Origin: Escherichia coli
GTDB lineage: Bacteria > Pseudomonadota > Gammaproteobacteria > Enterobacterales > Enterobacteriaceae
Length of the DNA stretch: 64,000 bases
Strand: one strand, 5' to 3'
Assembly (NCBI RefSeq): GCF_965641715.1
Contig: NZ_OZ282453.1
The translations under genes and the position numbers were made by a program. Positions 21,528-59,077 of the stretch are shown in pieces. The first letter of the stretch is position 1, and each line of letters starts with the position of its first letter. The notes beneath the pieces were generated by a model. It was not told where the DNA came from. It saw nothing but the letters and a program-made list of their open reading frames with translations, and made no database searches.

Positions 21528-21572
21528 GTGAAAATCCTTGTTGATGAAAAAAATGATGACTTAATTTATTGA
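21528..21572 (+). pseudogene. pdxB: Orphaned original 5' end of pdxB (promoter-proximal start fused to phage DNA)
   Basis: gtg aaa atc ctt gtt gat gaa aa... encodes (M)KILVDE, the same N-terminal residues as the PdxB body at 57944, then diverges into phage-side sequence and stops after 14 codons. Confidence 0.65.
21531..21550. repeat. Left attachment-site core (20-bp direct repeat)
   Basis: aaaatccttgttgatgaaaa, identical to 57944..57963 at the other end of the prophage. Confidence 0.7.
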
Positions 21573-21696
21573 TGTAAAAGGATTTATGTCAGCGCGTGTC
21601 CACGCAGTGACCACATTTTCGAGTTACAGATAACACAAAGCCCGTTTTCACGGGCTTTGTGTTATCTGTAATTGTGGCTAAGCCACATGATTTATA

Positions 21697-22590
21697 CTAT
21701 TTCCAGTTACAAGCAGATTGAAGCGGTTTTAGCGCGTTTGACAGGCCGTTTAAATTGAAAGTTGCACTTACGGGGCTCTCATTATAAGGCGTTATTTTTG
21801 TATACATTTTGCTTGAGTTGGCTAGTTTTCGGATGAAATCAATGTCATTACCTTTATAAAAAACAGCCTTTGTATCTGTAGATACTAGCCAGTTTCGCTC
21901 AACTGCTTTCTGTTTATCAAGGCGATAAAGCATGCTGGTTTGTTCAAGGCCTAAATATACATCCCAACTAAGAAATACTTCGGTTTTCTTTTCTCGGCAA
22001 GCTATAAACAGAGTAGGAGTAACCGCTTCTCCAAATGGAGTTCTGATATAATCATCACTTTCTAACGATAAAATTACATTTTTCGAATCATCAATTGGCG
22101 ATGTAGTAATGGATGTGTGCCATTTTCCTACATCTGTGGCTTTCTCTAATTTTGATTCAGCTTGAACGGCTTTATCCTGTGGGAATAGTTTATCGTAGCA
22201 GTTTAGTCTGGCTTCTTTATCATTTTCTGCACGACATTTAGATATCTCAGAAAGATTTGGTTGCTGAGCCTCTGTTGTTACTGGCTTTTCCGTTTTAGAT
22301 TTTGAGTTTACAGATGGAATAAATGTTGGAGAAAAGAAACGATCATAACAAGATAAACGTCTATCATCATCTTTCTCATCAGGGCATTGATCTCTGCTTT
22401 CGAATTTTTCAGCAACTTTCGTTCGAGTCGGTTGTATTGACTTATCGTAACAAGAAAGTCTGTCTTTATTATTTTCTATTGCTCGGCACTGGAGTACTGC
22501 ATTGAAGTTCTTATGTTCAGTTGCTGCGTGAACAGGCAGTACACTAATTGATAAAAATGATGCGCCTATAGAAAAAATTATATTTTTCAT
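21697..22590 (-). CDS. Prophage cargo: secreted protein with three Cys-containing repeats, function unknown
   Basis: 297 aa, signal peptide (MKNIIFSIGASFLSISVLPVHAA), three repeats of C-x(8-10)-RL(S/N)CYD(K/R), then a ~150-aa C-terminal domain; AT-rich codon usage. Confidence 0.6.
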   Translation of the reverse strand: MKNIIFSIGASFLSISVLPVHAATEHKNFNAVLQCRAIENNKDRLSCYDKSIQPTRTKVAEKFESRDQCPDEKDDDRRLSCYDRFFSPTFIPSVNSKSKTEKPVTTEAQQPNLSEISKCRAENDKEARLNCYDKLFPQDKAVQAESKLEKATDVGKWHTSITTSPIDDSKNVILSLESDDYIRTPFGEAVTPTLFIACREKKTEVFLSWDVYLGLEQTSMLYRLDKQKAVERNWLVSTDTKAVFYKGNDIDFIRKLANSSKMYTKITPYNESPVSATFNLNGLSNALKPLQSACNWK

Positions 22591-22594
22591 TTTA

Positions 22595-22927
22595 TTATCC
22601 CTTTGGTTTAGTAAGAAATACTAAAATTCCGATAATGATATCGCCAATAACCCATAAGCTTCCAATGGTAATTAAACCTAAGCCTGTACCAATAACTGCA
22701 CCGGCTTTTTCAGCATCGGATGTGGCATTATTTATTATTTCACTAGTGCCACCTAGTCCAACTAAAAGCGTATAGATCATAAAAATATTAAATAATATAA
22801 AAACCCACTTAATGATCCGTCCAAAAAATGAACGCTTAAGTTTTTGTAGTTGTTTACCACAAGCAGGGCAATACAATGCTGAATCGCTCACCTCTTTCTG
22901 GCATTCAGGACATTTGATTAATGCCAT
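22595..22927 (-). CDS. Prophage cargo: zinc-ribbon membrane protein, function unknown
   Basis: 110 aa with an N-terminal CPEC-x(13)-CPAC zinc ribbon followed by two hydrophobic helices; 4 bp upstream of the repeat protein (probable operon). Confidence 0.6.
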   Translation of the reverse strand: MALIKCPECQKEVSDSALYCPACGKQLQKLKRSFFGRIIKWVFILFNIFMIYTLLVGLGGTSEIINNATSDAEKAGAVIGTGLGLITIGSLWVIGDIIIGILVFLTKPKG

Positions 22928-23139
22928 GTAATCCGCCTCCTTTGGATTAATACGAGTTGATGTTTGTTACAAAACATTTTGATTTTATCAGATTTTTTTT
23001 TATTGATAAGTGTCAATTGATTAGCTGGTATAGAGTGAGGCATATAGAAGGGCTGATCTGTATCAGTATGTGATGCAAAAATCCCACAGTTTCATGGAAT
23101 TTTTGCAGTTAGAGCTGTGAGATAGGGTGCCTTATCGAC

Positions 23140-23189: not shown

Positions 23190-23330
23190 TTACTGCTTAC
23201 ACTGTAAGAACGCCGCAAACTCCGCTCCCCAGAAGCTCATCCGTATTTCGCACAGCGAACCGTGAAGCATCCAGATGATGAGGATTGCCGTCACGCAGAA
23301 CGTGATGGCCGTAAGCGATTTTTGCGACAT
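23190..23330 (-). CDS. Hok/Gef-like type I toxin (small membrane peptide)
   Basis: Hand-translated 46-aa ORF MSQKSLTAITFCVTAILIIWMLHGSLCEIRMSFWGAEFAAFLQCKQ: hydrophobic helix, then SLCEIR and EFAAF, resembling Hok-family motifs. Absent from the track because it is under 60 aa. Confidence 0.55.
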   Translation of the reverse strand: MSQKSLTAITFCVTAILIIWMLHGSLCEIRMSFWGAEFAAFLQCKQ

Positions 23331-23823: not shown

Positions 23824-24933
23824 TCACTCTGTTTCTGCTATCCATTCCGGGATTTTTGCTTCAAGCTCAAGCTGCGTGGTAAAGCCACTGTTATCAATGG
23901 TGTGCTCGGCTTTCGCAATAATCCAGTCCTGATTATCAATCTCGCTTTTAAATCCTGTTACCGTGCCATGCATTTCGGGGTAGAGTTCTGCTCGTCCACG
24001 TGTCAGCGTGATGGAGAATGATGCGGCTCCGCGTTGTAGTTGTTGCCACTTTGCCGCCGCTGCGCGTCTTGCTGCCTGCTCGTTCTGATAAGTCTTGCGT
24101 AACACAAACACATTGCCTTCCGCGCCTTCCATATAATCACCTTCACGGCTGCTGCTTTTCTCTTTTTTCGGTTTTGGCGGTTTGCGGCGTTTCACGCTGA
24201 CTTTTTTCTTTTTCCCGTAATTAAGATCAAGCCAGTAAGCGCGTACCCCCGTATACGCTTCGCGGTCAGCAATGCGGAACTGATGGCGATCGCCACTGCT
24301 GCGTGTGATGGCGAACGATGGCAACGGCTGGCCCTGTGCGTTCACGCCACCGCCGGGCATGATGAATAACAGATTACCGCTTTTTACCGTGGTGATTGCG
24401 CCCAGCATTTCCGCCATGCGCGTAAGGAAGGACATGTCACTTTCTTCGGTCTGGTCGGCGTGGTCGATTTCGATATCCATCAGCATTTCGCTGATTTGCG
24501 GTTTCAGACCGTACCGATGAGCGATGGCGGATACCACACGCTCAACGGTCACATCATGCCAGGACACCTCACGTTTAACGTTAAATTCATCCCGAAAATC
24601 TGCGCTTCTGGCTGAAACAGTCAGCCTGTCCGGCGGTCCTTCGTGTGCGATTTCATCAACAATGTAAGAGCCTTTTTCTGCCAGCGGTTCGCCTTTCCAG
24701 CCAATGAGAACCGTCAGGCGCGCGCCCCGTGGCGGTAGCTGCAACTGACCATCCGCATCATCCAGCGTGATGGTTAGCTGATCTGCCTCAAATCCCCGGT
24801 TGTCGGTCAGCGACAGGCTCATCAGGCGCTCTGCCACTCCGGACAGCGTTTTACCCTCCGCGAGAATATCAAAATCCGGCATTTTTACGGGGTCTGTGCT
24901 CTGACTGAGCAATTGCATGGTGGTATCGGTCAT
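23824..24933 (-). CDS. D: Tail protein gpD (late control gene D family)
   Basis: Conserved segments shared with P2 gpD (SLSLTDNRGFEADQL, RSADFRDEF, basic KKKVSVKRRKPPKPKK stretch, C-terminal GFTTQLELE). Start placed at MTDTTMQLL; the track ORF runs 44 codons further upstream. Confidence 0.8.
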   Translation of the reverse strand: MTDTTMQLLSQSTDPVKMPDFDILAEGKTLSGVAERLMSLSLTDNRGFEADQLTITLDDADGQLQLPPRGARLTVLIGWKGEPLAEKGSYIVDEIAHEGPPDRLTVSARSADFRDEFNVKREVSWHDVTVERVVSAIAHRYGLKPQISEMLMDIEIDHADQTEESDMSFLTRMAEMLGAITTVKSGNLLFIMPGGGVNAQGQPLPSFAITRSSGDRHQFRIADREAYTGVRAYWLDLNYGKKKKVSVKRRKPPKPKKEKSSSREGDYMEGAEGNVFVLRKTYQNEQAARRAAAAKWQQLQRGAASFSITLTRGRAELYPEMHGTVTGFKSEIDNQDWIIAKAEHTIDNSGFTTQLELEAKIPEWIAETE

Positions 24934-25090
24934 CTGCTTCCTCCCTGTGCGGCATGGTCGCATGTGCGTGTGGAGGGGGTTACTGCTTTTTGTTGTCGCC
25001 GTGGCGGGAGAACGGCGCAGGGGTGAGATTACGCGCGTGGTGGGTGATGATTGTTGCCGAATCATTTAACGGATACAAGGGGCTGAAGCT

Positions 25091-30675: not shown

Positions 30676-30709
30676 AAAACCGCTAATGGTCAGATTAGCG
30701 GTTATTTTG
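30676..30709. terminator. Bidirectional intrinsic terminator between gpU and the invertase gene
   Basis: aaaaaccgctaatggtcagattagcggttattttgtttt: a 9-bp perfect stem (accgctaat/attagcggt) flanked by A-run and T-run, between convergent genes. Confidence 0.7.
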
Positions 30710-31307
30710 TTTTCTGACTCTTCTCTATTGCTCCGCTTGATTCTCCTGCGGGGTGGTAACGATAAATCGTCGATGTACCAATGCCGTAAATTATTGCCAG
30801 TTGTTTTCTGTCGTGACCGTTTTTAATCAGCCTTGCTATTTGCTCATGCTGTTCTTTTGTCAGCTTCGGGCGACGTCCGCCTGTGCGCCCCCGTGCGCGC
30901 GCTGCTGCCAGTCCGGCCAGTGTACGTTCAACAATTAATTCACGTTCCATTTCAGCCAGGGCACCCATCACGTGGAAGAAAAAACGCCCCATTGGAGAAG
31001 ATGTATCTATGCTGTCGGTCAGACTGCGAAAATTAATCCCTCGCTCCCGTAGTTCCCCGACGAGAGAAATCAGATGTTTCATGCTTCGCCCGAGGCGATC
31101 CAGTTTCCAGACAACCAGCGTGTCACCTTTTTGAAGACGCTTTAAAGCGCGTTTTAATCCCGGTCGGTCTGTCTTTGTCCCGCTTAATTTATCTTCAAAT
31201 ATTTGTTCACATCCTGCACAAACAAGAGCGTTTCGTTGCAGGTCTGTATTCTGGTCATTTGTTGATACCCTTACATAGCCAATCAGCACGCTGAATCTCC
31301 CGTCCAA
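30702..31307 (-). CDS. Serine DNA invertase (Hin/Gin/Cin/Pin family)
   Basis: IGYVRVSTNDQNTDLQRNAL...GDTLVVWKLDRLGRSMKHL...MGRFFFHVMGALAEMERELIVERT, near-identical in pattern to Hin/Gin including the catalytic Ser; C-terminal HTH. True start may lie a few codons inside the ORF. Confidence 0.9.
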   Translation of the reverse strand: MDGRFSVLIGYVRVSTNDQNTDLQRNALVCAGCEQIFEDKLSGTKTDRPGLKRALKRLQKGDTLVVWKLDRLGRSMKHLISLVGELRERGINFRSLTDSIDTSSPMGRFFFHVMGALAEMERELIVERTLAGLAAARARGRTGGRRPKLTKEQHEQIARLIKNGHDRKQLAIIYGIGTSTIYRYHPAGESSGAIEKSQKTK

Positions 31308-31368: not shown

Positions 31369-32374
31369 AACGGTAAACAGGGCTGGTAACGCCGTGCAAA
31401 AAAATGGCGATACTTTGTCCGGTGGGCTTACTTTTGAAAATGACTCAATCCTTGCCTGGATTCGAAATACTGACTGGGCGAAGATTGGATTTAAAAATGA
31501 TGCCGATGGTGACACTGATTCATACATGTGGTTTGAGACAGGCGACAACGGCAATGAATATTTCAAATGGAGAAGCAAACAAAGCACCACAACAAAAGAC
31601 CTGATGAATCTTAAATGGGATGCTTTGTATGTTCTTGTTAAAGCTCTTTTCAGCAGTGAAGTAAAAATATCGACAGTCAATGCACTGAGGATATTTAATT
31701 CATCTTTTGGTGCCATTTTTCGCCGTTCTGAAGAATGCCTGCATATCATCCCTACACGAGAGAATGAGGGGGAAAATGGTAATATAGGGCCACTACGTCC
31801 CTTTACGCTTAATCTCAGAACTGGCCGCATAACTATGGGGCATGGTCTGGATGTTACAGGAGATATAACAACTAACGCCTGGGTGTATGCAAACAGGTTT
31901 GCTATTAATAGTGGCTCAACCTCATGGATTGATATGCGAAACCAGAATGTCATTTTTGGTAGAAACGCAGTATCAACAAGTTCTGCGCAGGCTTTGTTAA
32001 GACAAGACCATGCAGAACGCAAATTTTTTGTCGGTGGACTTGGTAACTACCAGTTTGGTTTTTACATGATTAATAACTCAAGGACAGCCAATGGCACCGA
32101 TGGTCAGGCGTACATGGACAATAACGGTAACTGGCTTTGTGGCTCGCAAGTTATTCCTGGCAACTATGGCAATTTTGATTCCAGATATGTGAGAGATGTT
32201 CGCCTGGGTACGCGAGTTGTTCAATTGATGGCGCGTGGTGGTCGTTATGAAAAAGCCGGACACGCAATTACCGGATTAAGAATCATTGGTGAAGTAGATG
32301 GCGATGATGAAGCCATCTTCAGGCCAATACAAAAATACATCAATGGCACATGGTATAACGTCGCACAGGTGTAA
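31369..32374 (+). CDS. Alternative tail-fibre C-terminal cassette (silent in this orientation)
   Basis: Frame open from the crossover site; encodes ETVNRAGNAVQKNGD..., parallel to the H segment after its own site, and ends ...INGTWYNVAQV like the expressed fibre. No promoter or N-terminus of its own. Confidence 0.75.
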
Positions 32375-32905
32375 ATGATGCAGCATTTAAAAAATATTAA
32401 GTCTGGAAATCCTAAAACGAAAGAACAATATCAGCTAACAAAGAATTTTGATGTTATCTGGTTATGGTCCGAAGACGATAAAAACTGGTATGAGGAAGTG
32501 AAAAACTTTCAGCCAGACACAATAAAGATTGTTTACGATGCAAATAATATTATTGTCGCCATCACTAAAGATGCCTCCACGCTTAACCCTGAAGGTTTTA
32601 GCGTCGTTGAGGTTCCTGATATTACAGCCAACCGCCGCGCTGATGATTCAGGAAAGTGGATGTTTAAGGATGGAGCTGTAGTTAAACGGATTTATACGGC
32701 AGACGAACAGCAACAACAAGGCGAATCACAAAAGGCCGCATTGCTTTCCGAAGCTGAATCAGTCATCCAGCCGCTGGAACGCGCTGTCAGGCTGAATATG
32801 GCAACAGACGAGGAACGCACACGACTGGAAGCATGGGAACGCTACAGTGTTCTGGTCAGCCGTGTGGATACGGCAAATCCTGAATGGCCACAAAAGCCTG
32901 AATAA
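32375..32905 (+). CDS. Tail-fibre assembly chaperone (partner of the silent cassette)
   Basis: 176 aa, [26 protein letters not shown]...; clear paralog of the oppositely oriented 177-aa ORF. Confidence 0.8.
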
Positions 32906-32933: not shown

Positions 32934-33467
32934 TCATTCAGGTTGTTCGGGAAATGTTACTGGCAGGCTGGAGGTGTCTGTAGATTCGACTTTCTGCGCA
33001 TAGAGCATCCACTCGGTTAATTTTTGTTTATTCTCGTCGGAAATGATGCCCAGCCGTAGCTGTGAGTCCCATAGCTGGGTTTTATCCCTAACGAGCTGTA
33101 GCAGGCTTTGCTTTTCATTTTCCGCCTGCTGCCTCTGCTCTTCCTCGGTATAAGTTCGCTTTACCACTACGCCATCTTTGAACATCCATTTACCAGAAAT
33201 ATCAGCCCGGCGATTTGCTGTAATATCAGGAACCTCAACGACGCTTGCGCCTTCTGGATTAATTGCTGAAACATCCTTTTCAATACAAATAATAACGTTG
33301 TTGTGGTCATAGACCATTTTCAACGTATCAGGCTGAAAGTTCTTTTGTTCCTCATACCAGTTTTTCCCATCCTCTGTATAAAGCCATTTGATGTTAAATT
33401 GTTTCGTTAGCTGGTATTGCTCTTTTGTTTTAGGGTTGCCAGCAGTAATATTTTTTAAGTGCATCAT
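32934..33467 (-). CDS. Tail-fibre assembly chaperone (partner of the expressed fibre)
   Basis: 177 aa, [25 protein letters not shown]...; directly downstream of H on the same strand. Confidence 0.8.
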
Positions 33468-33469
33468 AA

Positions 33470-35698
33470 TTAAATACTCCCCGCGTTATACCACGTCCCA
33501 TTAATGCAATACTGAATTGGCCTTGCCTGAGTTGTATCAATTAATTCATCACGGTTTCCGTTAACTGAACCCGTAACGACATAACCTGACCTGTCAGACC
33601 AGCCGGGACCATTCCATGTCTGAACAGATGACAGACCGCCAAGGCGAATACCTGTAATAAACCTTGAGTTACATTCTGCCTGCGTGTATGCACCAACATC
33701 TCCCGCAGAGGGTTTGCGGGTCGTGGTGTAAAACTCTGACCAGTTAGCCTCAAATCCATAACCATCACGCGCTGAACGATAAAAAATACCGCCGTTCCTG
33801 TAATTCACGCGGAACTGTACAGCAGGGCAGCTCCCCGTATTCATATTGAAGTGGAGGATTAATGTCGATGCACCGCTGATATCTGCATCATAAACACCGC
33901 TATTCCAGTTCCAGCCAACAGCTTTATCATTTGCAACCCTGCTTCCTGTTTGCCCTAAAGCAAATGCAGGCTGCTGGTTTTTCGTGTTGTAGTCTCTTCG
34001 CCAGCCAGGAGCATAAGCATCACCATGATTAATATAAGTGAATTGAGCGTTAGAGGTGCCGCCTCCGGTGGAAGTGCTTGGTGTTGTTACACGGATGGTC
34101 ATGGCACCTTTATTACCCATAACCTCAATAACGCAACCTGCAAGATGAATAGTTCCACAGCCAGTATCGGTAATAATTTTATTATTGCCGTATGACCATG
34201 AACATTTGCACATCCAGTATGGGTGATTGAATGCCCCTTGAGAATCCAGCCATTCAATCAATTGTGCCGTTGTCCAGTTCCCTGCCCCTGTACTAATAGC
34301 ACTGTGAAAAGCGCGACATGCACCAATATTTTTTGTGAAGGTATCTTTTCCTGGAATATCTGCGCCGTTCTGGTTTTTCTGTAATGCGCCAGAAGCCTGA
34401 TTTACCGTTTCTTGTAAACCGAGGTATTCGATAACGGCAGCAACGGTCGATTTCGCAAGAATATCCCGCCCGACTTTTGTCAGGGTTGCCAGGCTGGCGA
34501 CATCATTCCCCGTAAAATACGGAAACCTGTCTGCCGCAGTAGCAAGCCCGGCCAGCGCCGTCAGGGTGGCATCTTTCGGTTGCTTACCCGCAAGCGCGTT
34601 AGTCATGGTGGTCGCAAAATTCGGGTCGTTTCCCAGCGCCGCCGCTAACTCGTTCAGCGTATTCAGTGCGTCAGGTGACGAATCTACAAGGGCGGCAATC
34701 GCAGCCATAACGAAAGCCGTGCTTGCGATTTGGGTATTATTCGTTCCCTGTCGCGCAGTTGGCGTTGTTGGCGTTCCGGTCAGCGCAGGACTGTTTAAGG
34801 GCGCTTTCTTGTTCGTTTCATCCATTACCGCCTTAACCGCTTTCGATGTCGCGGCCAGTGTTTCAGACGTGCTGTTGGTGGCACTACTGAGCTGGACTAT
34901 CCCTTTTTGTGCCGTCGTGGCGTCCTGAGCGGTATATTTTGCGTTAGCAAGGTCATACGCGGCCTTTACTGCTTTCGGCGTTGCAGCCTGCGTTTCAGAC
35001 GTGCTGTTGGTGGCGCTACTGAGCTGAACTATCCCTTTTCGCGCAGTGGTAGCGTCCTGTGCGGTGTATTTGCCATTAGCCAGGTCATATGCCGCCTTAA
35101 CAGCCTTTGGCGTTGCCGCAAGCGTTTCAGACGTGCTGTTAGTGGCGCTGCTAAGTTGAACAAAGCCTTTTGCGGTCAGCGAGGCGTCCGGGTGACGTCG
35201 TGAGTGTTCATGCTCTTTCAGTTTGTCATCCACGTAATCCACTGTGGCCATTACCATGGTGTTATCCACGGTAAGCGCCACGGTGGCAGTGCTGGATACG
35301 GTCAGAATGGTGCGAAATGTTTGTGCACGTCCTGACCCTTCGGCAACGGTTGGCTTGTAACTTTCGGCAGTATTGCCTACTGCGATTAAATCGCCGTGCT
35401 CATCAAACACACCAATTTCCCGGATCCAGAATCCGCCCGTTTCTGGAGGAATAACCAGCTCCGCAATAATGCGGTTCTGATGTGTTGCGTCCAGGATGAC
35501 GCGATTAACAGTGTGTCGCCACACCTCATGCACCAGACGGGTCTGCTTACTGTCTGGTGTGGGCAACGTGCCGCCACCGTCGCCCACGGCCATATGAGTC
35601 AGGCGGACAGGCTTACCATCTGGCGCGGCTGCCTGAGCTAATTTTTTTGCACCCGTATCGGTGATAACGGTTTTAAATTTTCGTGTTGTGGTACTCAT
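33470..35698 (-). CDS. H: Tail fibre protein gpH (constant N-terminus plus currently selected variable C-terminus)
   Basis: 742 aa; conserved phage-fibre N-terminus, three tandem 43-aa repeats, crossover site near codon 421, C-terminus ...[12 protein letters not shown]. Confidence 0.85.
34409..34434. repeat. Invertase crossover site, right (gix/hix-like 26-mer, inside gene H)
   Basis: ttcttgtaaaccgaggtattcgataa, the inverted partner of the left site. Confidence 0.8.
34906..35290. repeat. Three tandem ~129-bp repeats inside the tail-fibre gene
   Basis: The DNA repeats encode [43 protein letters not shown] three times with minor variation. Confidence 0.7.
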
Positions 35699-47141: not shown

Positions 47142-47498
47142 ATGGAAATGAATATGAAAACTGTAACTGATGATGAATTTCGTGAGAACCTGAGTGAAAT
47201 TCTGGATTACCTTTCTTCCGGTGGCAGTGTCGTTATCACGGCGCAGGGAGGGAAGGATGTTGTTCTTGCTGGTTCTGATCTTAGTCCTGAAATACGGGCT
47301 GTCCTTGGCAAAACCAAAAAACTGCGGGATCAAATAAACAAAATGAAGCAACCACTCTTAATAAATGCAGTGAGAGATCTGGAAAAACGTCATCCAGCTC
47401 TTGTCGCACAGAGAAAAAAAGGATTGTCTTTTGAAGATGCAATGAAGCGTACAAGAGAAAAACATGCGGATATCATTAAAAAGCTTGAGGATAACTGA
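47142..47498 (+). CDS. Phd/YefM-family antitoxin
   Basis: N-terminal T..EFRENLSEILDYL...VVIT..GKDVVL resembles the Phd/YefM fold; stop overlaps the toxin start (ATAACTGATGG). Confidence 0.7.
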   Translation: MEMNMKTVTDDEFRENLSEILDYLSSGGSVVITAQGGKDVVLAGSDLSPEIRAVLGKTKKLRDQINKMKQPLLINAVRDLEKRHPALVAQRKKGLSFEDAMKRTREKHADIIKKLEDN

Positions 47499-47905
47499 TG
47501 GACATAGTGTTTTTGTCAAAAGAACAAGTAGAACGTATCCATGCTGAAACTTTACCCCAGAGCGGAAATGCCAATGACGGGCTACTTGAAGGTGCTTTAA
47601 ATCGCGTCAGGACACTACACTACTATGAAGGGGTTGATGATATTCATGCTCTGGCTGCTATGTATTTGATTGGTATAGCCAAGGCTCATGCCTTTCATGA
47701 TGGGAATAAACGCACAGCTTTTCAGGCTGCATCAATATTTTTAATGATGAACTCTTCCGAACTTTCAAACTCCCTGCTGCTGGTTAAATTAACGGTGTTT
47801 TCAGCAATGGGGATAGCTACCCTTGAGGAAGTTACCTTTGCTTTGAAATTGCTGTCTGATTATGGCAATGAATTAATCAGCGACTACGAAGAAGATTATA
47901 TTTAA
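47498..47905 (+). CDS. Doc-family toxin (Fic fold)
   Basis: HAFHDGNKRTAF matches the Doc/Fic core motif HxFx(D/N)GNKR; 135 aa. Confidence 0.8.
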   Translation: MDIVFLSKEQVERIHAETLPQSGNANDGLLEGALNRVRTLHYYEGVDDIHALAAMYLIGIAKAHAFHDGNKRTAFQAASIFLMMNSSELSNSLLLVKLTVFSAMGIATLEEVTFALKLLSDYGNELISDYEEDYI

Positions 47906-48071: not shown

Positions 48072-48407
48072 TCATTCATGCGTTTTTTCTTCATGGTCTG
48101 TCACTTCTCTCCTGATAACTTCATTGCACAAATCAACGCACTCATTGCAGATGTAAACAGACGGTCCGGCAATCACCTTTGTGACTTCGTACTGGGATTT
48201 ATTGCAGAAGCTGCAATAAATCGTCTCCTCACCTGAAGTCCATGTTTTGCTGGTTTCGCCAGACATCAGTTGTTTGAGGTCTTTTTCACGACGAAGAACT
48301 ATCTGGCCACATTCAGCTATTTTTTGGATGTTGACATTTTCTTCTTTCGCCAGCGCTTCCATCCGCTCAATCAGTCGCTGCGCTTTTTCTCTGTCAATGC
48401 GTTGCAT
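48072..48407 (-). CDS. Stand-alone protein carrying a ClpX-type N-terminal zinc-binding domain
   Basis: C-terminal half [38 protein letters not shown] is near-identical in pattern to the ClpX C4 zinc-binding domain; N-terminal 60 aa helical; no AAA+ module. Confidence 0.7.
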
Positions 48408-48470
48408 TGTGTCCCCCTTGTTTATGTTCCCGGGTTAAAGTCATCAGGGCGGATGCGCCCTGATGTTGTG

Positions 48471-48782
48471 TTATTCGGGAAATAACGCCCGGATATTTCC
48501 GGCCATCTGACTGGTTATCTGTGCGGTTGATACTGGCTGTGACGCGGGGCGTTCTGTCCTGGTTTGTGTCACTGATAACGCTTCATCATCAGCCCATGCA
48601 GCCAGTCGGTAAGCCTCTGCCGGATTCATTTTCAGAAGTGCCAGCCCGGCCAGAAAAGCCACGCGTTGGCCGCTTTTGCGCGCTTCTGGTGTAAGGCTGT
48701 CCAGCCAGGCGCATGCTTCACCTTCGTTCTTGACGGCGGCGGGCTTCAGATAGAAACTTATCCGTCTGGTTGGAGTCGTCAT
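48471..48782 (-). CDS. ParR/StbB-like partition adaptor
   Basis: ~103 aa from MTTPTRRISFYLKP...EACAWLDSL...RVAFLAGLALL, parallel to plasmid R1 ParR; directly downstream of the parM-like gene. Confidence 0.65.
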   Translation of the reverse strand: MTTPTRRISFYLKPAAVKNEGEACAWLDSLTPEARKSGQRVAFLAGLALLKMNPAEAYRLAAWADDEALSVTQTRTERPASQPVSTAQITSQMAGNIRALFPE

Positions 48783-48786
48783 TGGT

Positions 48787-49746
48787 TTACTCCTTGTCCA
48801 TTGCGTACAGCCCATTAACCAGAGCAAACTGTGGCACCCCGTCCGCGATGAAAGTCGCATTAACTCCGCAGGCTTCGCGGATAGCGGGTGCCACAATCTC
48901 CGCCCCGCCACCGACAACCATCACCCGCCCGTAACCCGAAAAAACCGCCAGCGCGCGGATCACGCGTTGTTTCAGTGTTTCTTCCTTTTCACGAATAACC
49001 GCCATCAGGCTGGCGTAATGCGCGTCATTGTGGATGTGCTGGCGCAACCAGGCTTCATCATGGCGATGTTCGATAATGGTATTGGCGATGTGGTGACTGA
49101 TACGCATACCGTTAGTGGCCATCACCGACAGTACGGCATCGGCCATCAGGGAAACGCCTACGTGTGGATCGCAAAACACCTGGCTGATACCTGCCAGTTG
49201 CCCCTGAACCTTTGCCACATCCAGTGTGGTTCCGCCCAAATCCACAATCAGCAGGGATTCAAGCGGACTCATGTCAGCCAGTGCTTTAAAGCCAGCCGGA
49301 ATGGATTCAGGCATAACCCGTACGTTACGGATAGTGAATGTTTCGCCGTTCTGGTACTCCACCGGGCGCATAACGTTCGCTTTTTTGCGGCTGATGTTGG
49401 CCATGTCCGGCTGTGCGTTTGTGTCGAAATACTCGCTCAATGGCAGGGTGACAACCACATCCACCTCCTGTGGCGTGATGCCTGATTTGACCAGCGCGTG
49501 ATGAATGGCAATGACATTCACATCGCTGTACTGGTATTGCGTGTCGGTCGTCTGGACAAAGCGATCGCTGACCGGATCAAAACCATAGCGCACGCCATCA
49601 AGCATGTAGTTCGCGGGCTGCGAGCCACCGAACGGCGCAGACCATTCCGACTTGAAGCTGTTCGGGCTGATGGCGTTGCGGCGTTCGCCGTTCTCAGTCC
49701 ATGCCAGCTTGATGTTGGTGGAGCCGTCGTCGATACAAATTTTCAT
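48787..49746 (-). CDS. ParM/StbA-like actin-family partition ATPase
   Basis: MKICIDDGSTNIKLAW...ISPNSFK...YSDVNVIAIHHAL...VMVVGGGAE...LVNGLYAM follows plasmid R1 ParM through all actin-fold motifs; 319 aa. Confidence 0.85.
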   Translation of the reverse strand: MKICIDDGSTNIKLAWTENGERRNAISPNSFKSEWSAPFGGSQPANYMLDGVRYGFDPVSDRFVQTTDTQYQYSDVNVIAIHHALVKSGITPQEVDVVVTLPLSEYFDTNAQPDMANISRKKANVMRPVEYQNGETFTIRNVRVMPESIPAGFKALADMSPLESLLIVDLGGTTLDVAKVQGQLAGISQVFCDPHVGVSLMADAVLSVMATNGMRISHHIANTIIEHRHDEAWLRQHIHNDAHYASLMAVIREKEETLKQRVIRALAVFSGYGRVMVVGGGAEIVAPAIREACGVNATFIADGVPQFALVNGLYAMDKE

Positions 49747-56660: not shown

Positions 56661-56756
56661 GGCCAGAAAACTGGTTAGACCTGCTTTTTGTCTGGTCTGA
56701 TTATTGCTGGAAAGAGGCTGGAGAAATTGTAGAGCGGTTCATTGGAGGGCTTCGTA

Positions 56757-57761
56757 ATGTCGATTAAGAAGCTCGAAGATGGTCGTTATTTGCTGGACAT
56801 CAGGCCGAACGGACGCAAGGGAAAGCGCGTGCGTAAGGTATTTGACAAAAAATCGGTAGCGGTGGCCACTGAACGCTACATCATGGCGAACGCTGAAAAG
56901 CGGGAATATATACAGGGCTACCGTGATCGTCGAACGCTAAATGATTTGCTTGAGTTGTGGTGGATGTATCACGGCCAGCACAGGCGTAAGGCGGAAGAAG
57001 ACCGAAAACAACTGCGCAACATAATCAATGAGCTTGGCGCTGATATGCAGGCTGTGGATCTTGATAAGCTGAAAATTATCGCGTGGCGTTCTCAAAAGAT
57101 AGCTGAAGGATTGAAACCGTCATCTGCTAACAGGTACATGAATCGGTTATCCGGAATGTTTACCGTGCTGAAAAAAATAGGTCTTTGGGATGCAGAACAT
57201 CCAGTAAGGGGAATTTCTATTCTTTATGTATCTCCACGAGAAATGGCGTTCCTGTCACAGAAGGAAGTGGCGCTATTGCTCGATACACTGGAGGGCGACT
57301 ACTGGCGTGTTGCGCTTTTGTGTTTAAGCACAGGGGCGCGCTGGAGTGAAGCTTGTAAGCTTCGTGGTGAACAGATAGTTCATAACCGTGTAACGTTTCT
57401 TGAAACCAAAAATGGCCGGAAGAGAACAGTGCCAATTTCGCAGGCAGTTTGTGAGGCGATCAAAACCAGAGAAACAGGCGGCTTGTTTGAGGTGAAGTAC
57501 CGGGAATTCTGCCTGGCGCTGAAAAGAGTTAAGCCCGACTTACCAAAAGGCCAGGCTGCACATGTGCTGCGGCATACGTTCGCCAGCCATTTTGTGATGA
57601 ACGGAGGAAACATTATTGCGCTTCAGAAGATTCTTGGTCACGCAACCATTCAGCAAACAATGGCATATGCGCATTTTGCACCGGATTACCTGCAGGATGC
57701 GGTGGCCCTTAATCCGCTGAAAGGTGGCGTAAGTGTCCACGCAGTGTCCACGGGGGATTAA
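56757..57761 (+). CDS. int: Tyrosine integrase (P2 Int family)
   Basis: MSIKKLEDGRYLLDIRPNGRKGKR...LSTGARWSEA...HVLRHTFASHFVMNGGNI...MAYAHFAPDYLQDA; catalytic R, H-x-x-R and Y present; 3' end faces the attachment site. Confidence 0.9.
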   Translation: MSIKKLEDGRYLLDIRPNGRKGKRVRKVFDKKSVAVATERYIMANAEKREYIQGYRDRRTLNDLLELWWMYHGQHRRKAEEDRKQLRNIINELGADMQAVDLDKLKIIAWRSQKIAEGLKPSSANRYMNRLSGMFTVLKKIGLWDAEHPVRGISILYVSPREMAFLSQKEVALLLDTLEGDYWRVALLCLSTGARWSEACKLRGEQIVHNRVTFLETKNGRKRTVPISQAVCEAIKTRETGGLFEVKYREFCLALKRVKPDLPKGQAAHVLRHTFASHFVMNGGNIIALQKILGHATIQQTMAYAHFAPDYLQDAVALNPLKGGVSVHAVSTGD

Positions 57762-57919
57762 TTTTATATAGCCTGAAACGGCTTAAAGGGCGATACTGAA
57801 TAACAATTTTTCAGTATTGCCCGTCTAAATGGTTATGTTGTTATCTGTATGATTATTAATGTTTTTTCAGATTAAACAGCAGTTTGCAAATGGGCGTTTG
57901 TTGATAAAGGAGCCTTAGA

Positions 57920-59077
57920 TTGTCAGAGACTGAAAAAGGGTTAAAAATCCTTGTTGATGAAAATATGCCTTATGCCCGCGACTTATTTAGCCGTTTGGGT
58001 GAGGTGACCGCGGTTCCCGGGCGTCCAATCCCCGTCGCTCAACTGGCAGACGCGGATGCGCTGATGGTGCGTTCGGTCACGAAAGTGAATGAATCTTTGC
58101 TGGCAGGAAAACCCATTAAATTTGTTGGCACTGCCACTGCGGGGACCGACCATGTCGATGAAGCATGGTTGAAGCAGGCGGGAATTGGTTTTTCCGCTGC
58201 ACCTGGCTGTAATGCGATTGCGGTGGTGGAATATGTTTTCTCCTCCCTGCTGATGCTTGCCGAACGCGATGGATTTTCACTGCACGAGCGTACCGTGGGG
58301 ATCGTGGGCGTTGGTAATGTTGGTCGGCGTTTACAGGCACGACTGGAAGCGTTAGGGATTAAAACCTTGCTTTGCGATCCGCCTCGCGCTGACCGTGGGG
58401 ATGAGGGTGATTTCCGCTCGCTGGATGAATTAGTTCAGCATGCGGATATTCTGACTTTCCATACGCCACTTTTCAAAGACGGGCCGTACAAAACGCTGCA
58501 TCTGGCGGATGAAAAACTGATCCGTAACCTGAAGCCAGGAGCGATTCTGATTAACGCCTGCCGTGGCGCAGTCGTCGATAATACCGCGCTGCTGACCTGC
58601 CTGAATGAAGGCCAGAAGTTAAGCGTAGTGCTGGATGTCTGGGAAGGCGAACCGGAACTTAACGTGGAGTTGCTGACAAAAGTGGATATCGGCACGCCGC
58701 ATATTGCAGGCTATACCCTGGAAGGTAAAGCACGCGGTACTACGCAAGTGTTTGAAGCCTATAGCAAGTTTATTGGGCATGAACAGCACGTTGCGCTGGA
58801 TACATTACTACCCGCGCCAGAGTTTGGTCGCATTACACTGCATGGCCCGCTCGATCAACCGACGCTGAAAAGGCTGGTGCATTTGGTGTATGATGTGCGC
58901 CGCGATGACGCACCGCTGCGTAAAGTCGCCGGGATACCGGGTGAGTTCGATAAACTGCGCAAAAACTATCTTGAGCGCCGTGAATGGTCATCTCTGTATG
59001 TAATTTGTGATGACGCCAGTGCGGCATCATTGCTGTGTAAACTGGGTTTTAACGCCGTTCATCATCCGGCACGTTAA
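57920..59077 (+). CDS. pdxB: Erythronate-4-phosphate dehydrogenase; 5' end supplied by the prophage
   Basis: D-2-hydroxyacid dehydrogenase with [11 protein letters not shown] motif. The frame opens at a TTG (57920) preceded by AAGGAG (57908..57913), giving an SETEKGL N-terminal extension ahead of the native KILVDEN. Confidence 0.85.
57944..57963. repeat. Right attachment-site core (20-bp direct repeat) inside the pdxB 5' end
   Basis: aaaatccttgttgatgaaaa, identical to 21531..21550. Confidence 0.7.

Follow-up and report, generated by a model that had tools for sequence, protein, structure and literature searches.

Introduction

VasI, also named TagO, is an accessory protein of type VI secretion systems (T6SS), and its role there is described in the literature as poorly understood. 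The family (PF11319; TIGR03360) includes VCA0118 of Vibrio cholerae and ECs_0222 of Escherichia coli Sakai, the latter being encoded in T6SS-2 between clpV and tssA. SDIC4B, a secreted protein of a Serratia defence island with a reported VasI-like fold, gave on its own a 10-200-fold protection against phages (bioRxiv 10.1101/2024.01.28.577318). Temperate phages of the P2 type are known to carry non-essential, AT-rich and variable cargo in fixed slots of a conserved backbone, as seen with the lysogenic-conversion genes old, tin and Z/fun of P2 and with the defence hotspots of P2-like phages (PMC9122126; 10.64898/2026.02.27.708500). Here we examined a pair of adjacent genes in a 64,000-nucleotide stretch of E. 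coli DNA (assembly GCF_965641715.1, contig NZ_OZ282453.1), which is called the window throughout. A sequence-only reading of this window had described the pair as an AT-rich cargo operon next to the left attachment site of a P2-like prophage, and had considered superinfection exclusion as one possible role. We show that the pair is horizontally exchanged accessory cargo of the prophage and that the larger product, a secreted protein of 297 amino acids (aa), falls in the VasI family, on a branch that phages carry and that is distinct from the T6SS component; its partner is a 110-aa zinc-ribbon membrane protein.

Both P2 hotspot cargo and VasI-family proteins are known already, and the locus described here is a variant of both, with a VasI protein standing outside the T6SS; the pair is a sensible candidate for experiment. 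The 297-aa protein falls in the same Pfam family as VasI/TagO and shares with it a signal peptide, a C-x11-C-Y-D helical hairpin, a beta-sandwich with a conserved cysteine pair and a C-x-W C-terminus, the identity with ECs_0222 being 26% over 195 aa. It differs from TagO in that its gene is the last gene of a P2-like prophage and does not lie within a T6SS cluster next to clpV/vasH and tssA, in having three N-terminal hairpins against one, and in having a zinc-ribbon membrane partner. SDIC4B is likewise a small secreted protein encoded outside T6SS clusters on mobile or variable DNA, its VasI fold being an HHpred statement of the authors; however, its partners are the periplasmic SDIC4A and BrxR in a chromosomal island, whereas the neighbours here are the zinc-ribbon protein, hok and ogr in a prophage, and none of SDIC4A, SDIC4C-E or BrxR was present beside the pair. 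The beta-sandwich of the 297-aa protein may be like that of invasion-associated protein B of Bartonella (IalB; PF06776; PDB 3dtd), at an identity of 14-18%, but IalB is devoid of the helical hairpins and its mechanism is not known either.

The 110-aa protein resembles DrpB (YedR), a small protein of E. coli which localises to the septal ring (PMC7648144) and in multicopy activates Rcs via the periplasmic domain of RcsC (PMC11709261). Its residues ~28-110 have the same length and the same topology as DrpB (both termini inside, two membrane helices with a loop of ~20 aa in the periplasm, as judged by hydropathy, charge and AlphaFold2 (AF2) models), give a weak collinear match and share a TRPK/TRPR end, but DrpB is chromosomal and has no zinc ribbon, and the score of the 110-aa protein stays under every family threshold. 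In contrast to the P2 hotspot genes, the pair occupies the slot between ogr and the attachment site (att) and not the gpA-portal or tail-fibre region, is unrelated to them in sequence, and has envelope rather than cytoplasmic products. Neither VasI, TagO nor the pair is mentioned in the 2022 and 2026 papers on P2/P4 defence hotspots. A literature search for functional studies of the pair found none. T4 Imm and Sp and HK97 gp15 are small phage proteins of the inner membrane or facing the periplasm, which block the entry of incoming DNA or the tail lysozyme. They have no sequence or fold relation to the pair and serve as an analogy for the mechanism proposed below only.

Results and Discussion

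The gene pair is accessory cargo of a P2-like prophage

The window contains a 36.4-kb P2-like (Xuanwuvirus-type) prophage. An exact 20-bp direct repeat, AAAATCCTTGTTGATGAAAA (no strand assigned), forms the attL core at 21531-21550 and occurs a second time as the attR core at 57944-57963, at the start of an intact pdxB; since this repeat covers the first pdxB codons, the 5' end of pdxB is where the phage has inserted. On the left the prophage is flanked by flk, and on the right by its integrase gene (56742-57761) and pdxB. The pair is separated from attL by 147 bp, on the prophage side, and the positions of the two repeats therefore place it within the prophage. Among 5,426 complete E. coli genomes, 5,425 matched the 121 nucleotides (nt) up to window position 21550, which represent the flk-pdxB junction, and in the prophage-free genomes the match to the query stopped at position 21550. 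The pair was present in about 236 of the 5,426 genomes and was found at the junction in none of the prophage-free strains among them, K-12 included, so we rejected the idea of a chromosomal gene at the flk-pdxB locus. Among sequenced phages, PhiR44_2, Citrobacter phiSM, 500465-2 and Xuanwuvirus P884B11 have DNA with 92-99% identity. P2 itself had been said to have almost nothing at this place, and indeed only ~100 bp lie between the end of its ogr and the attP core, with a terminator and the sites for integrase (Int) and integration host factor (IHF) but zero genes.

Both open reading frames (ORFs) proposed for the locus were confirmed on the minus strand. The gene for the 110-aa inner-membrane protein, with its zinc ribbon and two-helix hairpin, lies upstream at 22595..22927, and that for the 297-aa secreted VasI/TagO-family protein, with its signal peptide, three hairpins and beta-sandwich, follows at 21697..22590 after a gap of 4 nt. 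The GC content of the two genes is 0.354 and 0.368 as compared to 0.526 for the remaining prophage, and the GC content at third codon positions is 0.26 for the pair against 0.57 for gpD. Rates of nonsynonymous and synonymous substitution (dN and dS) were calculated against a copy with 92-95% identity from strain Res13-Lact-PEB08-01. The dN/dS ratio of the VasI-like gene was 0.13 and that of the zinc-ribbon gene 0.22, which argues that both genes are kept by purifying selection; since, besides these ratios, homologues are many, the ORFs are not chance ORFs. The dS of the cargo (0.19-0.23) was about 6-fold higher than the 0.035 of the adjacent ogr and hok, and the module has therefore been exchanged independently of the backbone. 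Composition and dS thus bear out the earlier view of an AT-rich cargo that was acquired separately.

The content of the slot was further compared among prophages with 95-99% identical ogr/gpD. At the serS site the slot holds hok only, at the tRNA-Leu site a hypothetical gene and IS481, at the raiA site Com and a DNA methyltransferase, and at the ytfP site a DUF4177 gene and a YidD-like gene, while in another prophage at the pdxB site a RES-family gene stands upstream of the pair. This last gene (locus L002, 5002-5829; annotated as NAD+ phosphorylase) lies between hok and the zinc-ribbon gene and is without an annotated partner. An essential phage function of the pair was rejected, because P2 and many prophages with 95-99% identical backbone do without it. 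As the pair lies inside the att boundaries, is missing both in P2 and in close relatives whose backbone is the same, deviates in GC content and has a separate history, we conclude that it is non-essential accessory ('moron') cargo, horizontally exchanged in a variable slot reaching from ogr/hok to att.

As for expression signals, the 110-aa gene has a strong ribosome-binding site, GGAGG, and ~55 nt further upstream a consensus scan detected a promoter-like site (22982..23009, minus strand) made up of TTATCA, a spacer of 16 nt and TAAAAT with an extended-10 TG. After the stop codon of the VasI-like gene two hairpins follow at 21624..21687 on the minus strand, one with a 6-bp stem (21673-21687) and the other with a perfect 22-bp stem (21624-21671). 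This region folds as RNA with -45.4 kcal/mol, at a z-score of -11.4 against shuffles, and the hairpins, which have no U tract, may serve as terminator or insulator.

Placing the 297-aa protein in the VasI family, on a phage-borne branch

The 297-aa protein starts with a Sec-type signal peptide (aa 1-22, with hydrophobic residues 4-22, ending VHA/A) and has eight cysteines in four pairs. A regex search identified three C-x11-C-Y-D motifs, all encoded on the minus strand. Repeat 1, CRAIENNKDRLSCYD (22444..22488, aa 35-49), matches positions 1-26 of the VasI model and lies in a modelled helix-turn-helix of residues 30-36 and 41-51; repeat 2, CPDEKDDDRRLSCYD (22342..22386, aa 69-83), is backed by the Pfam VasI motif match and the AF2 model; and repeat 3, CRAENDKEARLNCYD (22192..22236, aa 119-133), corresponds to the single motif of canonical VasI proteins and aligns to the motif of T6SS-2 TagO. 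Three repeats of the form C-x(n)-RLSCYDK had been noticed before, and their number and cysteine pattern hold, but the third reads RLNCYD and not RLSCYD. The remainder of the protein is a C-terminal beta-sandwich domain (21700..22128, minus strand, aa 155-297), in which C198 and C294 are conserved and which ends in C-N-W-K. The sequence-only reading could not place this domain in any family; we could place it, as the protein matched Pfam VasI (PF11319) with an E of 1.7e-16, residues 118-296 aligning to model positions 1-184 of 184, the domain matched PHROG 1848 (phrog_1848), a family of unknown function, with an E of 1.6e-37, and its fold is a beta-sandwich that may be IalB-like. The repeats, moreover, belong to this family too: both extra N-terminal repeats each match the first 26 positions of the Pfam VasI model, and the 'RLSCYDK' repeat is the N-terminal signature of this same family in three copies. 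The protein thus shows the signal peptide, the N-terminal C...RLxCYD and the C-terminal cysteine pair with tryptophan that characterise VasI proteins.

An AF2 model built on an alignment of 132 sequences had a mean predicted local distance difference test (pLDDT) score of 84 and displayed three helix-turn-helix hairpins joined by disordered linkers, followed by the beta-sandwich at residues 155-297, where pLDDT exceeded 94. An exhaustive search retrieved homologues in 3,659 representative clusters at E <=1e-3, most of which have one copy of the C-x11-C-Y-D motif, while forms of ~250 aa have two and forms of ~297 aa have three. In a viral fold library twelve matches were significant at E ≤ 0.001, some of them to proteins of virulent T4-like phages. 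The only solved structural relative is the Bartonella invasion-associated protein B, to whose Pfam family (PF06776) the protein also gave a partial match with an E of 9.8e-4.

Membership in the VasI family does not make the protein a T6SS component. Against TIGR03360, the equivalog model of T6SS VasI/TagO, it scored 75.3 bits, below the curated cut-off of 124.2, and other P2-borne homologues scored 43-57 bits, as compared to 257.4 bits for ECs_0222 of E. coli T6SS-2. These 75 bits against 257 for a genuine TagO, together with the identity of only 26%, led us to place the protein within the VasI family but outside the T6SS equivalog. In agreement with this, a T6SS cluster surrounds this branch in none of 13 distinct neighbourhoods examined, of which 12 are phage or prophage and one is an orphan locus; of seven relatives sampled outside P2-like prophages, six are in phage or prophage and the seventh, from Photobacterium, is that orphan locus, without prophage or T6SS genes. 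We therefore separate this branch, which is carried by phages, from the T6SS component, and regard the RefSeq product name of the 297-aa protein, 'T6SS-associated protein TagO', as an over-annotation. The phiSM copy, 98.7% identical to it, was in 2019 listed from annotation alone as ORF1, 'T6SS VasI family protein', under 'Virulence' cargo (PMC6456863). Since the prophage proteins are not a T6SS component, prophage cargo inflates the number of 'T6SS genes' counted in the genomes of E. coli, Klebsiella and Citrobacter, and one such protein has already been counted as a T6SS virulence factor in a published prophage survey.

The 110-aa protein combines a zinc ribbon with a membrane hairpin

The membrane partner has, as reported from the sequence before, a CPEC...CPAC motif pair and two transmembrane helices: CPEC occupies residues 6-9 and CPAC residues 20-23, and hydrophobic stretches extend over ~37-60 and ~77-106. 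The zinc ribbon was recognised by PF13240 (E 1.6e-7), and the AF2 model comprises a beta-ribbon at residues 3-26 and helices at 34-66 and 71-105. Positive charges are placed ahead of the first helix and behind the second, and the predicted topology is therefore one in which zinc ribbon and C-terminus are cytoplasmic and a loop of ~18 aa faces the periplasm. Over its full length the protein matched PHROG 6586 (phrog_6586; E 1.7e-41), a family of unknown function. The family was found in Enterobacterales and one Haemophilus only, with a mean column identity of 72% and with N47 and D96 invariant inside the helices. Neither this protein nor its 297-aa partner is a housekeeping protein.

When the NCBIfam model of DrpB (NF038392 / PF28000) was compared with the protein, it gave 20.8 bits (E 3.6e-4) and so did not reach the cut-off of 50. 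Residues 29-110 aligned by hhalign to residues 11-93 of DrpB with an E of 0.0012 and a probability of 19%, and weak PF28000 matches were obtained on homologues of the 110-aa protein as well. We describe it as a zinc ribbon with a putative DrpB-like membrane hairpin.

The pair recurs in P2-like prophages of several genera

The survey that had been proposed, for recurrence of the pair next to att in other P2-like prophages, gave a positive answer. P2-like prophages of E. coli, Citrobacter, Klebsiella, Enterobacter and Dickeya, which occupy several integration sites, have the pair at the same position between ogr and att. The gene order gpD-ogr-(hok)-zinc ribbon-VasI-like-att-host is constant in Klebsiella, Enterobacter, Dickeya and E. 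coli, and is shared by prophages at yccJ/wrbA, fieF-pfkA, a pflB-side site and pdxB. The two genes are separated by 4 nt, except in Dickeya (9 nt) and in Enterobacter, where they overlap by 4 nt; at two loci the zinc-ribbon gene was missed by the gene caller but is intact. All 19 P2-like phage records having a full-length VasI-like gene also have the zinc-ribbon gene (19/19). Isolated or induced phages carrying the pair are PhiR44_2, phiSM, 500465-2 and P884B11, besides Klebsiella phage records of unstated origin.

At the ytfP site of E. coli, one prophage has a VasI-like gene (250 aa, two motifs) convergent with the gene of a 98-aa protein which consists of an N-terminal zinc ribbon and a membrane hairpin of the TM2 family. 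The architecture therefore recurs with a non-homologous membrane domain, and an association that outlives the replacement of the membrane domain is our strongest argument for a functional partnership. A PADLOC search gave no match for this TM2 protein or for the RES protein mentioned above.

The locus was also encountered on plasmids. IncF plasmids of enterotoxigenic E. coli (ETEC; 11 PLSDB records) carry a prophage-end remnant with the order ogr-hok-zinc ribbon-VasI-like, and in the one that was examined closely (NZ_CP023347.1, 6983-8999) the VasI-like gene is split in two ORFs and other phage genes are not found nearby. A plasmid-borne virulence gene was rejected for this reason, the ETEC copies being a prophage-end remnant with a split VasI-like gene.

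A candidate role in phage exclusion and its alternatives

VasI-like genes were further located in other phages. The gene of Brucella phage BiPBO1 follows an S24 CI-type repressor gene of the same strand at a distance of 8 nt, that of a metagenomic phage contig is the last of a helix-turn-helix (HTH) repressor operon, after a lipoprotein gene, and that of a Labrenzia phage adjoins repressor genes, while a lambda-like prophage has it as an insert between tail genes L and K. Such positions are the usual places of lysogen-expressed exclusion or conversion genes in temperate phages. They and the SDIC4B precedent suggest the pair as a plausible candidate for phage exclusion at the level of the envelope.

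We tentatively favour, at somewhat short of an even chance, that lysogens express the pair and that it works at the envelope to counter incoming phages. The operon would be transcribed in the lysogen from its own predicted promoter, the 110-aa protein would reside in the inner membrane with its zinc ribbon toward the cytoplasm, and the 297-aa protein, translated from the same message, would be exported to the periplasm and there be stapled, in its three helical hairpins and the IalB/VasI-type beta-sandwich, by four predicted disulfides. Positioned or regulated by its membrane partner, the periplasmic protein may then interfere with penetration or DNA entry of an incoming contractile or other tailed phage, and the outcome would be superinfection exclusion or defence, to the benefit of prophage and host alike. 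If the pair does block phage entry, an envelope-acting, prophage-borne defence would be added to a field dominated by cytoplasmic systems, a very large family that is now named only after an uncharacterised T6SS accessory protein would receive its first function, and the ogr-to-att slot of P2-like phages would be marked as a source of such genes.

A number of observations weigh against this reading. The promoter is a consensus-level match of a kind that is not above shuffled expectation in this region. In PADLOC-DB 2.0.0 neither protein matched a family at E up to 1, and the matches of the 297-aa protein among solved structures and in the viral fold library lack functional annotation. No similarity was detected between SDIC4B and the 297-aa protein (BLASTP E 51; hhalign probability 0.1%), and SDIC4B, whose sequence was taken from the preprint supplement, matches no Pfam family. 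Filing the 297-aa protein under SDIC4 was therefore rejected, and the precedent is one at the level of fold only, as there is no sequence relation, the partner is another one and the fold is an HHpred statement of the authors. Other cargo of the slot, such as Com with the DNA methyltransferase or DUF4177 with the YidD-like gene, is not obviously defensive. Finally, each gene is also found without the other: VasI-like genes without the zinc-ribbon partner occur in other phages, whereas Pantoea (cueR-copA, many genomes), Serratia rubidaea (cpxP-fieF) and Haemophilus paracuniculus have the zinc-ribbon gene as an AT-rich islet of its own, and no remnants of a VasI gene were found near these solitary copies. 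One Pantoea genome has a P2-like integrase directly downstream of the solitary zinc-ribbon gene, and aberrant excision from such an arrangement could be a route by which the gene entered the ogr-att slot.

This arrangement in Pantoea, the solitary occurrence of each gene and the fact that cargo content tracks the integration site would fit with two genes which have no joint function and which, being independently mobile, were captured together, perhaps by aberrant excision. We give this very little likelihood, as the tight spacing (4 nt, 9 nt or a 4-nt overlap) persists across genera despite 40-70% protein divergence, both genes are under purifying selection and are present together in all 19 P2-like phage records, and the architecture recurs with the TM2-type protein. 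Another thought is that the 297-aa protein acts on the T6SS, either shielding the lysogen from attack or modulating the host T6SS by mimicking or titrating VasI/TagO. Its Pfam VasI membership and the 26% identity over 195 aa with Sakai T6SS-2 TagO, which includes the N-terminal motif and the C-terminal C-x-W, point in this direction, and T6SS and P2 tails are both contractile injection machines. However, the 75 bits fall short of the equivalog cut-off of 124.2 that a genuine TagO exceeds at 257, none of the 13 neighbourhoods is a T6SS cluster, homologues occur in a phage of Brucella, which is not known to have a T6SS, and the role of VasI in the T6SS is itself described as poorly understood; an action on the T6SS thus appears improbable.

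The same low probability is assigned by us to the 110-aa protein being the active part, which as a DrpB-like protein would act on the divisome or on the Rcs phosphorelay (capsule) and alter the lysogen surface, with the periplasmic protein as cofactor. Its architecture is that of DrpB, the weak matches are collinear (E 3.6e-4; hhalign E 0.0012; PF28000 on homologues), DrpB in multicopy activates Rcs (PMC11709261) and sits at the septal ring (PMC7648144), and the zinc-ribbon gene persists alone in several chromosomes; but 20.8 bits against a cut-off of 50 and an hhalign probability of 19% count for little when short hydrophobic hairpins are easily spuriously similar, DrpB has no zinc ribbon, and nothing ties VasI-like proteins to Rcs. 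That the pair is a host-interaction or virulence/fitness factor, serving in colonisation or invasion and not against phages, is very improbable too. It would agree with the Bartonella invasion-associated protein B as the only solved structural relative and the partial IalB match (E 9.8e-4), with the 'Virulence' label of phiSM ORF1 (PMC6456863) and with the remnant locus on the ETEC IncF plasmids, but the phiSM label rests on annotation only and the ETEC plasmid copy is split into two ORFs. Moreover, the 297-aa protein carries a plain Sec signal but none for the outer membrane or for a secretion system, and is therefore predicted to remain in the periplasm, and its family is found also in phages of soil and marine bacteria and, at the fold level, in virulent T4-like phages. 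A further reading, which we consider unlikely, takes zinc-ribbon and periplasmic VasI-type proteins together as a two-part envelope surveillance system, in which one to three disulfide-stapled hairpins would keep the beta-sandwich away from the membrane, and the beta-sandwich would recognise the tip, tube or tape-measure of an incoming tailed phage or a T6SS spike and then either block entry or signal via the hairpin to the zinc ribbon. If this were true, the phage-borne VasI branch would be a widespread, unrecognised class of superinfection exclusion, and a role of VasI in the T6SS would be hinted at.

Other features of the prophage

Between the pair and ogr lies an ORF of 46 aa for a Hok/Gef-type toxin (window 23190-23330, minus strand), which matched the HokA model with an E of 2.2e-8 but stayed below the cut-off, and which is kept beside ogr in all related E. 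coli prophages examined, including those without other slot cargo. At attL (window 21528-21550) the native GTG start and promoter of pdxB remain, joined to a 14-codon stump, and at attR (window 57900-57965) the ribosome-binding site (AAGGAG) and the start (TTG) with which PdxB would begin come from the phage.

The gpA-portal hotspot of the prophage encodes a toxin of the Doc (death-on-curing) family (window 47142-47905, plus strand), which scored 53.6 bits with TIGR01550 and so exceeded the cut-off of 38.65. It is preceded, with a 1-nt overlap, by an ORF of 118 aa, and the two are probably a toxin-antitoxin pair. The same hotspot (window 48072-49746, minus strand) has an ORF of 111 aa whose C-terminus matches the N-terminal zinc-finger of ClpX (E ~4e-13), and an ORF of 319 aa with a weak match to the actin-like PRTRC protein D (ParM-like). 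The gene of a serine DNA invertase (30702-31307, minus strand) adjoins opposed tail-fibre/assembly ORFs at 31394-32905 (plus strand) and 32934-35698 (minus strand), and the segment 30702-35698 has the look of an invertible cassette for host range; in RM10740, the closest genome, an IS66 element takes the place of this arrangement. The longest ORF of gpD (window 23824-25065, minus strand) has 413 aa with an implausible N-terminal extension rich in Arg, Pro and Thr, and since homologues have 369-384 aa the true start is probably an internal Met. RefSeq entries of related genomes present gpD as a shortened 'VgrG/Pvc8 family' protein together with a pseudogene fragment.

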